From Deltaproteobacteria bacterium (GTDB lineage: Bacteria; Myxococcota_A; UBA796; SXON01), in contig VGRQ01000001.1 of NCBI GenBank assembly GCA_016875315.1, positions 1 through 51,982 of the forward strand: a stretch of DNA of 51,982 nucleotides, in the 5' to 3' direction. The notes under the pieces are model-generated. The model was given only the letters and a program-made list of their open reading frames with translations. It had not been told where the DNA came from and did no database searches. The position numbers and the translations under genes are program-made. Below, in pieces: positions 37,506 to 48,723 of this stretch (positions are counted from its first letter, which is position 1; the number at the start of each line of letters is the position of its first letter).

Positions 37506-37536
37506 GGTTTTTTGTGTTTTTGACCCTGATTGATGG

Positions 37537-37564
37537 TTGCCTTGCCCGACGCCGAGCATATGAT
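37537..37564 (+). promoter_or_regulatory. sigma-70-like promoter candidate for flp / the tad operon
   Basis: TTGCCT (37537-37542), a 16-nt spacer, then TATGAT (37559-37564), about 50 nt upstream of the flp ATG. A GAGGAA Shine-Dalgarno sits at 37601-37606. It lies in the only AT-rich stretch of the window. A TTGACC at 37520-37525 is also present. Confidence 0.35.
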
Positions 37565-37612
37565 GGTGGTGCCCCCCAGGGCTCGGCTCTCTCTCACCGT
37601 GAGGAACACCCC

Positions 37613-37774
37613 ATGATCAAGCAGTTCATCAACGACGAAGCCGGCGCCACCGCAATCGAGTACGGCCTCATCGCCGGCCTCGTCTCGGTCGCCATCATCG
37701 TGGCGCTCACCGCGCTCGGCACCAGCCTCGACGACCTGTTCTCCACCATCAGCAGCACCATCAGCGGCGCCTAG
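37613..37774 (+). CDS. flp: Flp/Fap family type IVb pilin
   Basis: 53 aa: MIKQFINDEAG/ATAIEYGLIAGLVSVAIIVALTALGTSL... It has the canonical Flp motif, a G/XXXXEY processing site and a hydrophobic helix. It is in frame with track ORF 37472..37774. Confidence 0.9.
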   Translation: MIKQFINDEAGATAIEYGLIAGLVSVAIIVALTALGTSLDDLFSTISSTISGA

Positions 37775-37795
37775 AAACCGGGCCGCAGAATCACG

Positions 37796-37838
37796 CGGGC
37801 GGGGGGTCCACACGGGCGCCCCGCCCGTCGTGTTTGTT
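37796..37838 (+). terminator. rho-independent terminator / attenuator-like hairpin downstream of flp
   Basis: CGGGCGGGG (37796-37804) pairs with CCCCGCCCG (37819-37827). A 14-nt loop is followed by the T-rich tcgtgtttgtt (37828-37838). Confidence 0.5.
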
Positions 37839-37871
37839 AGCATAGCGGCGGCGCGCAGGGAGTAGCACACG

Positions 37872-45649: not shown

Positions 45650-46584
45650 TGATCGTCCTGGCGGGCCTCTGGGGCTGCACCGCCTGCGTCACCCTGCCTG
45701 CGGAGGTGCCGAACGCCCCCGGCACGGTCGACGAGGACGTGCTCCCCGACCTGCTGAGCGTCAGCTCCCCCGACCTGCCGATGAACCTCTGGTTCACGAT
45801 CGCGCAGCTCTCCTACGAGGACTACCGCGACTGCCCGATCGTCACGGTGACCGACCAGGTGCTCAGCATCGTCACCGACGCCGACGGCTGCCTCGACTCC
45901 TCGGGCGTTCACTGGGTGGGCTCGGCCACGGCTACCTTCGGGGCCGGCGGTGCCATCGTCTTCTCGTTCGACGACTTCGGCCCCGACAGCGGCGCCGACG
46001 ACGCCTGGACGGCCTTCGGCACCGTCACCGTCACCCGCACCACCAGCGGGCTCGGCGACCGGGTACACAGCGACCTCCAGATGACGAGTATCAGCGAGAA
46101 TGCCGATGGAAACCGCGTATTTTACCACAGCACCGACGGCAGCCTGACCTACTACGACGGCGCCGCCTACTTCGACCACTTCTACGGCACGGTCGGCCTG
46201 GGCGACTGGGGTACCGCCCAGATCGACGCCAACCGCGTGCCGCTCGCCACGGTGAACGGCTGCGCCTACGCCAAGCACTACGCGGGGACCATCGGCGTGT
46301 TCGCGGCCAACGAGGCGGTGTTCAGCTTCAAGGCCCTCGAGAGCGAGGCCAAGGCCCCGCCGCCGGCCGAGGGCAGCGACAGTGGCAACTGGGACACCGG
46401 CGACGCCGACACCGACACCGACACCGACACCGACTCCGACTCCGACCTCGACGTGTCGCCGCCCAGTGGCGACGCCGAGGGGCTCTGCGGCGACTGCGCG
46501 GCGGTCTCGGTGGACGGGACGACGCTTCCCGAGTGCGTGGAGGCGGAGCGCACCGTGGGCTGGCCCTTCTACATCCCATTTTAG
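45646..46584 (+). CDS. lipoprotein (hypothetical) with an acidic (TD/SD)n linker and a Cys-containing C-terminal segment
   Basis: 312 aa. Lipobox-like MMIVLAGLWGCTAC, balanced composition, a DADTDTDTDTDSDSDLD repeat, and the end ...GLCGDCAAVSVDGTTLPECVEAERTVGWPFYIPF. Confidence 0.55.
   Translation: MMIVLAGLWGCTACVTLPAEVPNAPGTVDEDVLPDLLSVSSPDLPMNLWFTIAQLSYEDYRDCPIVTVTDQVLSIVTDADGCLDSSGVHWVGSATATFGAGGAIVFSFDDFGPDSGADDAWTAFGTVTVTRTTSGLGDRVHSDLQMTSISENADGNRVFYHSTDGSLTYYDGAAYFDHFYGTVGLGDWGTAQIDANRVPLATVNGCAYAKHYAGTIGVFAANEAVFSFKALESEAKAPPPAEGSDSGNWDTGDADTDTDTDTDSDSDLDVSPPSGDAEGLCGDCAAVSVDGTTLPECVEAERTVGWPFYIPF
46402..46449. repeat. in-frame hexanucleotide tandem repeat GAC(A/T/G/C)(C/T)C, 8 units
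   Basis: Read directly: gacgcc gacacc gacacc gacacc gacacc gactcc gactcc gacctc. It encodes DADTDTDTDTDSDSDL inside the 45646..46584 lipoprotein. Confidence 0.9.
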
Positions 46585-46654
46585 GATTTTTGTCTTTGAC
46601 ATGTTGCGGACAGCGGCCGCCTGTTCTAGGCTCTGCGTACCGCAGAGGTACGGG

Positions 46655-47887
46655 ATGATGTGGACTCAGCCCGACCCCCGGGCACGCCGTGCGTGTCGCC
46701 GGGGCACGGTCTCGATCGTCATGCTGGTCGTGACGCTCACGCTGTTGCTGTTCGCGGCGCTGGCCATCGACTTTACCTACGTGCGAACTACTCAGTTCGA
46801 GTTGCACAACGCCGCCGACGCGGCTGCGCACGCCGCGCTGGTGGAGTTGCGACGCTCGGGCGACCAGCGGGCCGCCACCCAGCTGGGACAGGAGCTCGGC
46901 GAGCTCAACGTCGCGGCCGGCGAGCACGTCACCATCGACTCGTCCGCCTTCACCTACGGCGAGTGGGACTACGCCTCCTCCACCTTCCTCCCCGGCAGCG
47001 CGCTGACCAACGCGGTGCGGGTTCGCGCCGACCGCAGCGAGGCGGTGCCCGATGGCCCGGTCGCCCTCCTGCTCGGCCCGATGTTCGAGTTCGACAGCGC
47101 CGACGTGGCCGCCGACGCCGTGGGCGCCTTCCGTAGTCGCGACGTGATGCTGGTGCTGGACGTCACGGGCTCGTTCCTCGAGGAGATGAACGACGCCGCC
47201 GCCGCGGTGGTGTTGTTCCTCGACGAGATGAACTCCCGTCGCCTGCCGAACGATCGCATCGGGCTCAACACCTTCACCGGTGGCAGCCAGATGGTCACCA
47301 CGCTGCGCGAGATCGACGGCAACTACAGCTCCATCCGGTCAACCTGGTACGGCGACGGGCGGTTGAACAAGGACCCCCGCAAGACCCGGGGGCTGACCAA
47401 CTGCTACCAGACGGCCTGCGGCAACCGCAGCTACTGCGGCAGCATGTACCGGCGCAACATCCCGGGCTCCTGGATGCAGTCGTGCAACATGGTGGGTGAC
47501 GACGGCGTGAGCGGCTGGACGAGCCAGGGCCCCGGTCTCCGCGTCGCGCGCCAGCACCTCGACACCAACGACACCTATGGCAACACCAAGGTGATCGTGC
47601 TCATCAGCGACGGTCGCCCCACCTGCCCCGGCTACAGCAACAGCGAGAACAACCCCTGCGCCCTTGCGCGCGCCGCCTACGCATACTCCCAGGCCGACGC
47701 TGCCTACGCCAGCGGCACCAACATCTTCACGGTGTCGATGAACACGTCGCGAAGCACGGCGCAGGAGGCGTTCATGGCCTCCCTGGTGCGCGGCTACGGC
47801 AAGGCCTACAACACCGCCCGCTCCAGCGACCTCCAGGAGATCCTCCTCGAGATCGCACAGTCGATCCCCATCGCCCTGGTGGAGTAG
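46655..47887 (+). CDS. tadG: TadG-like pseudopilin/adhesin with an N-terminal Tad_N helix and a vWA domain
   Basis: ATG at 46655 in frame with track ORF 46382..47887. RRGTVSIVMLVVTLTLLLFAALAIDFTYV is TadE/G-like. DVMLVLDVTGSF is a MIDAS-like DxTGS motif. KVIVLISDGRP is a vWA beta-strand. Confidence 0.75.
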   Translation: MMWTQPDPRARRACRRGTVSIVMLVVTLTLLLFAALAIDFTYVRTTQFELHNAADAAAHAALVELRRSGDQRAATQLGQELGELNVAAGEHVTIDSSAFTYGEWDYASSTFLPGSALTNAVRVRADRSEAVPDGPVALLLGPMFEFDSADVAADAVGAFRSRDVMLVLDVTGSFLEEMNDAAAAVVLFLDEMNSRRLPNDRIGLNTFTGGSQMVTTLREIDGNYSSIRSTWYGDGRLNKDPRKTRGLTNCYQTACGNRSYCGSMYRRNIPGSWMQSCNMVGDDGVSGWTSQGPGLRVARQHLDTNDTYGNTKVIVLISDGRPTCPGYSNSENNPCALARAAYAYSQADAAYASGTNIFTVSMNTSRSTAQEAFMASLVRGYGKAYNTARSSDLQEILLEIAQSIPIALVE

Positions 47888-47890
47888 ACT

Positions 47891-48301
47891 GTGCGCATGC
47901 GGCTCCGCCGAGGCACGACGTCGATCGAGTTCGCGATGATCATGATCGTGTTCTTCGGCATGATTTTCGCGATCATGGACTGGGGCTGGTACTTCTTCCA
48001 GCGCAGCCAGTTCATGGACGCGGTGCTCGACGGCACCCGCCGCGCCGTCACCCGCTCGCAGAGCGACGCCACGCTCGACCCCGCCAGCGCCGCCGTCCAG
48101 TACACCGAGGAGAACCTCACCGACTACGGCATGGACCCAGCGCTCACCACGATCTCTGCCACCTACGAGGGCAGCACCCCGAGCGAGGTGCTCATCGTGG
48201 CAGCGTCGATGCCCTTCGAGCCGTTGATCGGCCTGTTCACGTGGCAACTGCCCGACAACGTCAACGCCCAGATGTCGATGTACCTGGAGATGCAGGACTG
48301 A
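47891..48301 (+). CDS. tadE: TadE-like pseudopilin
   Basis: 136 aa. RRGTTSIEFAMIMIVFFGMIFAIMDWGWYFF is the TadE/TadG N-terminal motif (G/xxxxEF). Confidence 0.75.
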   Translation: MRMRLRRGTTSIEFAMIMIVFFGMIFAIMDWGWYFFQRSQFMDAVLDGTRRAVTRSQSDATLDPASAAVQYTEENLTDYGMDPALTTISATYEGSTPSEVLIVAASMPFEPLIGLFTWQLPDNVNAQMSMYLEMQD

Positions 48302-48723
48302 TGCGCGCGCGCCCTTCTCGCCGAGGCGTGGCCGCCGTCGAGTTCGGCCTGTGGTTGCCGGTCATCTCGGTGATCCTGCTCGCCATCGTGGAGTACGGCT
48401 GGCTCCTGTACCGCCGCAGCGAGGTCACGCGCGCGGTGCGCGAGGGCGTTCGCTACGCGGTGGTGATGCCGCAGACCAGCGTGCCCGACCCCATCACGCT
48501 GGCGGAAACGCGCTGCGAGACCGTGCTCACCGACCTCAACTTCGACCTGAGCGCCGCGACGATCGCCGGAAGCTACAGCGACATCACGGGCGATGCTGCC
48601 GGCACGCCCGACACGCTCACGCTCGATGTCCAGGTGCCCTACGCCGAGGTGACCGGGGGGCTGGTGCCCACGCCGCCCTTCATCGCGGTGTCGATGTCGA
48701 TGATGTTGCAGGACAGCGAGTAG
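48301..48723 (+). CDS. TadE/TadF-like pseudopilin
   Basis: The ATG at 48301 overlaps the preceding TGA by 1 nt. MRARPSRRGVAAVEFGLWLPVISVILLAIVEYGWLLY is the TadE-like motif. 140 aa. Confidence 0.75.
   Translation: MRARPSRRGVAAVEFGLWLPVISVILLAIVEYGWLLYRRSEVTRAVREGVRYAVVMPQTSVPDPITLAETRCETVLTDLNFDLSAATIAGSYSDITGDAAGTPDTLTLDVQVPYAEVTGGLVPTPPFIAVSMSMMLQDSE

Follow-up and report, generated by a model that had tools for sequence, protein, structure and literature searches.

A probable Caulobacter-type Cpa/Tad pilus operon with a variable minor-pilin module in a Myxococcota genome

The Cpa system of Caulobacter (pilA-cpaA-K, cpaL) and the tad-rcp systems of Aggregatibacter and Pseudomonas are the described machines closest to the locus reported here, an operon-like Tad/Flp pilus gene block at positions 37613–48723 of a 51,982-nucleotide stretch of DNA. 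This whole stretch, hereafter the window, is contig VGRQ01000001.1 (C1 in our numbering) of GenBank assembly GCA_016875315.1, one metagenome-assembled genome (MAG) filed as Deltaproteobacteria bacterium (GTDB lineage Bacteria; Myxococcota_A; UBA796; SXON01). Cpa and tad-rcp are built from the same parts as the window locus; they share with it the single CpaF/TadA ATPase, the two platform proteins and the core gene order. Different from them, the window locus contains neither a cpaA/tadV peptidase gene nor a recognisable RcpB, its tadG precedes two tadE-like genes, and two lipoprotein genes specific to the lineage follow the gene of a tetratricopeptide repeat (TPR) protein, which itself is without lipobox. 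In Caulobacter, CpaL combines a pilin module with one von Willebrand factor A (vWA) domain carrying a MIDAS (metal ion-dependent adhesion site); its structural analogues are SpaC and Mfa5, and a tip complex together with CpaJ and CpaK, as well as a part in surface sensing, has been proposed for it (PMC12607857).

Two predation systems are also related to Tad. The Kil system of Myxococcus xanthus (MXAN_3102-3108 and MXAN_4648-4661) is derived from Tad and has its core parts in common with it, and the hallmarks that set it apart from ordinary Tad have been listed (PMC8460266). According to that study, the ATPase KilF carries an FHA domain at its N-terminus, the clusters encode several proteins with FHA, the genes lie in two clusters, the secretin is short, and in the phylogeny KilF, CpaB and both platform proteins cluster with those of Myxococcales, Bdellovibrionales and Bradymonadales. 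KilL, KilM and KilN are homologues of TadE, TadF and TadG that form exchangeable tips, and the distal domain of KilN has no analogue in the PDB (PMC12075869, 2025). For Bdellovibrio bacteriovorus, a Tad system needed for prey invasion is described that has one TadZA hybrid, encoded in a tadZA-tadB operon, with tadC at another place and tadG standing by itself (2026 preprint).

Like M. xanthus Kil, the window locus belongs to Myxococcota, has the Tad-derived core and contains one TadE/F/G-type trio that possibly forms a tip. Unlike the window, Kil has FHA on KilF and FHA neighbours, is split into two clusters and has no TadZ listed; the KilN tip domain is without PDB analogue, whereas the candidate tip domain of the window is a vWA domain. 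The B. bacteriovorus tad locus 1, with its TadZA fusion, resembles the window in generic Tad parts only. In the window, tadZ and tadA are separate, tadB and tadC are adjacent, and the tree described below puts the ATPase on the opposite side. The locus is most probably an ordinary Caulobacter-type Cpa/Tad operon for Flp pili.

Gene content and phylogenetic placement

The locus consists of thirteen + strand genes in one block (37613–48723), and all 13 reading frames are intact. Genes were called from an open reading frame (ORF) listing with translations and from Pfam and NCBIfam searches; all of them have a family match except the two lipoprotein genes. An earlier reading of the same DNA, made from the sequence only, had named flp, cpaB, cpaC, tadZ, tadA, tadB and tadC as well as genes of a TPR protein, two lipoproteins, TadG with vWA and two TadE-like pseudopilins; all are present on the + strand as one contiguous, tightly coupled block. 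The ATGA overlaps at 38882 and 45646 and the GTGA overlap at 43738, also reported there, are found in the sequence as well. It described nearly all junctions as overlapping or tight, and most of them do overlap or leave a gap of ≤8 nt; the exceptions are the flp–cpaB junction (97 nt) and the lipoprotein–tadG junction (70 nt). The upstream boundary, between the RNase D gene rnd and flp, is 107 nt. The start at 37520 needs to be moved, as flp most likely begins at 37613 and 37520–37612 is the promoter/leader region.

The order of the core genes is the classical tad order, flp-rcpC-rcpA-tadZ-tadA-tadB-tadC-tadD-...-tadE/F/G. The machine was also called complete, which is not strictly so: the A24 prepilin peptidase is missing from the locus. 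No A24 peptidase gene was found within 8 kb on either side in the related loci, and the MAG encodes two of them elsewhere, at C48:12635 and C142:2878. The MAG is 5.5 Mb in size, fragmented into 881 contigs, ∼92% complete and 6.3% contaminated; all statements on absence hold for the assembled sequence.

TadA/CpaF (41458–42801; 447 aa) is the sole secretion ATPase of the locus. Residues 93–373 match T2SSE (2.4e-64), and the Caulobacter CpaF structures 9e24 and 8rkd are matched at ∼1e-135 over residues 7–435, with an identity to Caulobacter of only 53% in the ATPase core. Among 120 listed homologues, those of 73–95% identity all carry PF00437 and PF27713, and the ones with a name are CpaF. To place the ATPase, we copied by hand, from the Figure 7 source data of the Kil authors, the part of their supermatrix that covers this protein (360 positions, 28 species), and realigned it with 25 ATPases from other collected loci, the second Tad ATPase of the MAG and that of the window. 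The maximum likelihood tree of this single protein was calculated with IQ-TREE from 55 rows and 350 columns. Of the published supermatrix, the analysis covered only the ATPase columns and one 72-column segment of a platform protein.

In the tree, one split supported by 99/96 separates the window ATPase and 12 relatives, which form a 100/99 clade, from all ten Kil-predator references. The side of the window also holds the Cpa ATPases of Caulobacter and Agrobacterium and those of Desulfo-type, Planctomycetota, Acidobacteriota and Gemmatimonadota; the nearest named relative is the reference row 'Delongatus' (100/96). On the other side are the ten predators, the beta/gamma-proteobacterial Tad ATPases, the ATPase encoded on contig C142 of the same MAG and three Chloroflexaceae/Clostridiales/Veillonellaceae MAG rows. 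The predators were not recovered as one clade; together with the beta/gamma Tad and C142 ATPases they form an open polytomy, and for this reason we claim only the side of the split for each ATPase. An approximately unbiased (AU) test rejected the best tree in which the Kil predators and the window clade are joined (delta lnL 105, p = 0.00016). The platform segment agrees with the tree: over 72 aa, TadC is 52–53% identical (70–73 bits) to Desulfohalobium and Desulfovibrio, versus 40% (43.5 bits) to M. xanthus.

The secretin CpaC/RcpA (38882–40258; 458 aa) carries the T2SS-T3SS_pil_N (3e-13) and Secretin (4e-41) domains. Its best solved structures are RcpA 8odn (4e-44) and 8jvb, the latter being matched over nearly the full length (4.5e-38). 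The sequence-only reading had suggested placing the ATPase and the secretin, and had named clustering with ordinary Cpa/Tad proteins, along with mutants that lack a predation or contact phenotype, as the outcome that would count against a Kil-like machine. Such clustering is what we observed, with Caulobacter CpaF and RcpA as the nearest solved structures.

The locus is also strongly conserved. Synteny was analyzed by tblastn of the window proteins against 43 related loci; the order rnd-flp-cpaB-cpaC-tadZ-tadA-tadB-tadC-TPR-78-aa lipoprotein is kept in ∼40 of them, with TadA identities of 64–98%. In a sample of the phylum, TadA matches were found in 19/19 genomes of the same order, mostly at 64–78% identity, and reached ≤62% outside the order. 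The pattern is one of vertical inheritance under selection, not of recent acquisition as an island. We also considered a horizontally acquired 'colonisation island' and found no support for it: the GC content of the locus equals that of its flanks, the neighbours are housekeeping genes (rnd upstream; DapD/DapE genes and one MMPL transporter gene further out) and the locus lies beside rnd throughout the order. In one uncultured order of Myxococcota, the canonical Tad operon has a constant chromosomal position next to rnd, and its tip module is what changes.

Minor-pilin module and possible use of the pilus

The last three genes of the operon encode minor pilins. TadG (46655–47887) is a modular minor pilin with matches to Tad (2e-9), Tad_C (6e-6) and VWA_2 (4e-8). 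It is followed by TadE-like minor pilin 1 (47891–48301; RRG/TTSIEFA; TadE 6.2e-12) and TadE/F-like minor pilin 2 (48301–48723; RRG/VAAVEFG; TadE 1.3e-13); for the latter, the start ATG at 48301 was picked by the position of the TadE motif. The model of TadG (pLDDT 77) contains one N-terminal helix (residues 8–68), a small sheet and then the vWA fold. Six orthologues share without exception the residues of a MIDAS-type motif, D169-x-T/S-x-S173, T289 and D319. SpaC, an adhesin of the pilus tip, gives the top fold match in the PDB (6m3y, 6.8e-10), and Mfa5 is also among the matches. Like Caulobacter CpaL, TadG joins a pilin module to a MIDAS-bearing vWA domain, and the two proteins have the same top structural analogue, SpaC.

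The module of tadG (with vWA) and two tadE genes is in the locus in L006, L011 and L042; in a small number of further related loci it has the reverse orientation or a different place. It is not at this position in L007–L010 and L019, despite TadA identities of 90–93%. In these five loci (∼13100–13400), the gene of the 312-aa lipoprotein is directly followed by the flippase-like gene or by the 210-aa ORF that flank the operon downstream. Their genomes contain TadE genes elsewhere (2–7 matches each) together with TadG-like N-terminal halves. Region 46585–48723 of the window is a variable cassette, and the 70-nt gap before tadG is the cassette boundary.

At least three further minor-pilin modules are present in the MAG of the window itself, on C388, C617 and C411. 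C388:3900-5129 is one TadG-vWA paralogue with 53% identity, located after the gene of a 1100-aa Cys/Asp-motif repeat protein with MYXO-CTERM-like tail; C617:492-1993 is a TadE and TadG-like pair adjoining a MYXO-CTERM protein; and C411:3387-4559 is one TadG-like gene after that of a 949-aa repeat protein. Some of the extra modules may come from a co-binned strain, given the 6.3% contamination.

By analogy with CpaL and the known machines, the operon likely makes Flp pili that end in a minor-pilin complex with a vWA tip and serve in surface attachment or sensing. Transcription would start at the promoter-like site before flp, and the hairpin after flp would let part of the transcripts into the twelve downstream genes. 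A TadV/CpaA-type peptidase whose gene lies outside the locus, presumably one of the two found in the MAG, would process the Flp prepilin behind Gly11. The single CpaF hexamer, on the TadB/TadC platform, is expected to polymerise the pilin and, by analogy with Caulobacter, may retract the pilus as well. TadZ would position the machine, and CpaB would form the periplasmic ring under the CpaC secretin, with the TPR protein and the small lipoprotein as likely secretin helpers. TadG and the two TadE-like proteins are predicted to prime assembly and to be located at the pilus tip, where the metal-ion site of the vWA domain could bind the target surface.

Several points weigh against this reading. 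The peptidase partner is assumed, as the locus has none and the MAG is ∼92% complete. TadD pilotins usually have a lipobox; the TPR protein at the TadD position has no Cys near its N-terminus, i.e. it is without lipobox. The adhesive role is deduced from homology throughout, and the organism is uncultured. The phylum includes predators with Tad-type pili, so that a role in prey attachment is conceivable, yet no result of ours suggests one.

The last point leads to the alternative that survives best: the operon is of canonical ancestry, but the Cpa-type pilus is mainly used to grab or sense prey, the swappable tips setting the prey range, possibly alongside a TadZA-type system. The absence of the module from its position in L007–L010 and L019, whose genomes hold other TadE/TadG-like genes, and the additional modules on C388, C617 and C411 are consistent with such a use and recall the four interchangeable tips of M. 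xanthus (PMC12075869). However, variable TadE/F/G tips were also predicted in non-predatory bacteria (PMC12075869), and vWA tip pilins serve abiotic surface sensing in Caulobacter (PMC12607857). Moreover, nothing in our analysis marks the organism as a predator, and the additional modules may belong to the genome's other Tad system or stem from a co-binned strain. We consider this use of the pilus improbable, and attachment to or sensing of surfaces remains the reading that we prefer.

Kil hallmarks and a second Tad system in the genome

The sequence-only reading had proposed that the locus is a compact, single-cluster Kil-like machine; such a machine would assemble on prey contact and kill. 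Its host is a Myxococcota genome, Kil is Tad-derived with the same core parts (PMC8460266), and the TadE/F/G trio is in the locus, as for the tip-forming KilL/M/N (PMC12075869). Against this, the ATPase groups with Cpa and Desulfo-type ATPases across the 99/96 split from all ten predators, their union is rejected by the AU test, and the TadC segment is Desulfo-type. Pfam detected no FHA domain in the window ATPase, no precomputed one is present in the 120 listed homologues, and none of the 18 FHA matches of the genome lies on contig C1. Among the 22 Kil-region proteins listed, none is annotated with ParA/MinD or CpaE-type domains, whereas the window has TadZ. Instead of the two-cluster split typical of Kil, all genes are within 37613–48723. 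TadG ends in a vWA domain, not in a KilN-type domain, and separate Kil-side Tad genes are present on C142 and C164. Membership in Kil was rejected on the ATPase tree, the AU test, the domain scans and the TadC segment, and the proposal is now very hard to sustain. The secretin, whose shortness is one of the Kil hallmarks, does not decide between the two: KilC is made up of BON, pilus N-terminal and secretin domains, that of the window shows a pilus N-terminal and a Secretin domain with no BON at E ≤ 0.01, and Tad secretins are short in general.

Finding Tad genes in a Myxococcota host is not the same as finding Kil. The discriminators are easy to check: the fusion of FHA to the ATPase, the phylogeny of the ATPase and platform proteins, and the dispersal of the genes.

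The second Tad system of the MAG is dispersed. Contig C142 (L001) encodes, at 2785–9001 and in this order, the A24 peptidase, CpaB, a secretin, one 734-aa TadZ-TadA fusion and one platform protein. The domains of this secretin (pilus N-terminal, BON and secretin) are the same as those listed for KilC. In the 734-aa protein, a ParA/MinD-like TadZ domain is fused to the CpaF ATPase. The fusion is a conserved family of ∼730 aa: more than 100 of the 120 listed clusters match it over nearly the full length with 47–89% identity, and the listed clusters with a named organism are most often from Myxococcota. In the tree, the ATPase part of the fusion belongs to the Kil/Bdellovibrio side, within the polytomy there. 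The second platform gene stands alone at C164:8771-9652, and a segment of its product is 57% identical to M. xanthus KilH/G. There is no FHA domain on C142, and because of this we do not call the system Kil. It is closely similar to the predatory Tad of B. bacteriovorus, with rcpC-rcpA-tadZA-tadB on C142, the tadC-like gene on C164 and lone minor-pilin genes. A predator-type Tad machine, should the genome have one, is the dispersed C142/C164 system and not the window operon, and these two contigs are the place to look for it.

A broader picture could be drawn, in which the lineage runs two Tad machines, the Cpa-type operon and the Bdellovibrio/Kil-side TadZ-TadA system, that share at least four exchangeable tip modules, so that specificity for prey or particles evolves by tip swapping. 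The vWA tip of the window, present or absent among close relatives, would then be one such cassette. We regard this picture as tentative and rather unlikely.

The least credible alternative, an inactive or orphaned locus that makes no pili for want of its own prepilin peptidase (none in the locus or within 8 kb on either side in relatives), hardly accords with 13 intact, tightly coupled frames whose order is kept in ∼40 loci at 64–98% TadA identity, a pattern of purifying selection, with the two A24 peptidases elsewhere in the MAG, or with the Tad loci of B. bacteriovorus, which also lack TadV yet work (2026 preprint). To pilus biology at large, the locus brings nothing unexpected; of more interest are the variability of the tip cassette and the presence of a TadZA-type system in the same genome, both of which reach partly beyond the locus.

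Other operon parts, flanking genes and host

CpaB/RcpC (37872–38885), the periplasmic alignment-ring protein, matches Pfam SAF and RcpC (1.9e-26) and the NCBIfam CpaB equivalog TIGR03177 with 188.8 bits, against a cut-off of 71; its gene is overlapped by cpaC through ATGA. TadZ/CpaE (40265–41449) is a ParA/MinD-like protein with the motif KGGVGTT and a receiver-like N-terminal domain. It matches AAA_31 (4e-13) and CbiA and, below the cut-offs, Pfam Response_reg and NCBIfam MinD and CpaE_hom_Actino. The GspF-like inner-membrane platform proteins TadB (42785–43741; T2SSF 2.4e-15) and TadC (43738–44679; T2SSF 1.9e-20) are encoded by overlapping genes; tadB overlaps tadA by 17 nt, and tadC overlaps tadB by GTGA. 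TadC contains the canonical motif FPDALDLLV..VEAGLGLD.

The TPR protein (44682–45410) occupies the TadD/CpaI position and is a candidate pilotin. It matches TPR_1, TPR_2, TPR_8 and TPR_16 (down to 8e-23) and, below the cut-offs, the PilW and Tgl-type TPR families of NCBIfam; the position of its gene is kept in ∼35 related loci. The gene of the 78-aa lipoprotein (45413–45649) starts 2 nt after it. The lipobox-like N-termini of this protein (MIALLTLFAC) and of the 312-aa lipoprotein were judged by eye, not by a lipoprotein predictor. The 78-aa lipoprotein has no match in Pfam or NCBIfam; it carries the conserved motif C-x-x-P-x-H-L-Q-Y-D-[FYH]-G-R, and its orthologues directly follow the TPR gene in ∼30 related loci. 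A hidden Markov model (HMM) built from ∼27 orthologues gave matches confined to this lineage, with none in the Tad loci fetched from other phyla (L049–L085) and no second copy in the MAG. By these sequence searches, the protein appears to be a lineage-specific Tad accessory; speculatively, it might supply the lipid anchor for the lipobox-less TPR protein.

The gene of the 312-aa lipoprotein (45646–46584; N-terminus MMIVLAGLWGC) follows with the ATGA overlap. The protein contains one beta-rich core (∼residues 60–200), an acidic TD/SD repeat and a Cys-rich C-terminus; the mean pLDDT of its AlphaFold model is 64, with 80–93 in the core. It has no Pfam or NCBIfam match and no significant fold match in the PDB (best E = 0.29), and its homologues were found in the closest relatives only, with 31–66% identity.

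The pilin gene flp (37613–37774) encodes a 53-aa Flp prepilin that matches Pfam Flp_Fap at 6.1e-18 (64.8 bits, cut-off 32.2). The predicted cleavage is MIKQFINDEAG/ATAIEYGLIAG, the G/xxxxEY motif being read from the sequence. GAGGAA stands 8 nt before the ATG. One sigma-70-like promoter candidate (TTGCCT, 16 nt, TATGAT) was found upstream at 37537–37564 (+ strand) by consensus match only; it is the sole such site in 37300–50500, where shuffled sequences gave a mean of 0.7. Between flp and cpaB, at 37812–37828 (+ strand), there is a terminator-like GC-rich hairpin of 7 pairs, 6 of them G-C, followed by the T-rich tail GTGTTTGTT. The arrangement of promoter, flp and hairpin is usual where more pilin than machinery is made. 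As judged from its sequence, the hairpin likely acts as a partial terminator or attenuator that raises the ratio of pilin to machinery transcripts.

Two orphan Flp-type pilin genes were noticed in the MAG, C134:400-579 (Flp_Fap 1e-9) and C33:4661-4846 on the − strand (5e-5). Both are distant from the two Tad clusters; the C33 copy adjoins a gene for one AAA-type ATPase. Downstream of the operon, 48739–50371 encodes a flippase-like LPG_synthase_TM membrane protein and the 210-aa ORF. Both adjoin the locus in most close relatives, even in those without the tip module, which makes them conserved Tad neighbours.

The MAGs with the nearest TadA homologues (65–98% identity) have titles that read Myxococcota, Deltaproteobacteria, 'uncultured proteobacterium' or HK-STAS-MYXO, and many of the isolate names resemble lake sampling series. 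The MAG of the window has 21 matches to the MYXO-CTERM sorting signal above the cut-off, versus 0 in 14 control genomes. These titles and matches bear out the description of the genome as Myxococcota-like, and the host lineage is an uncultured, probably freshwater, order of Myxococcota. Several public MAG records with the Myxococcota Tad locus, L006, L011, L015 and L022 among others, carry evidently wrong titles: 'uncultured Klebsiella sp.', 'Klebsiella pneumoniae', 'Enterobacteriaceae' or 'Enterobacterales'. In L006, TadA is 98% identical over the best aligned segment and the synteny is full.

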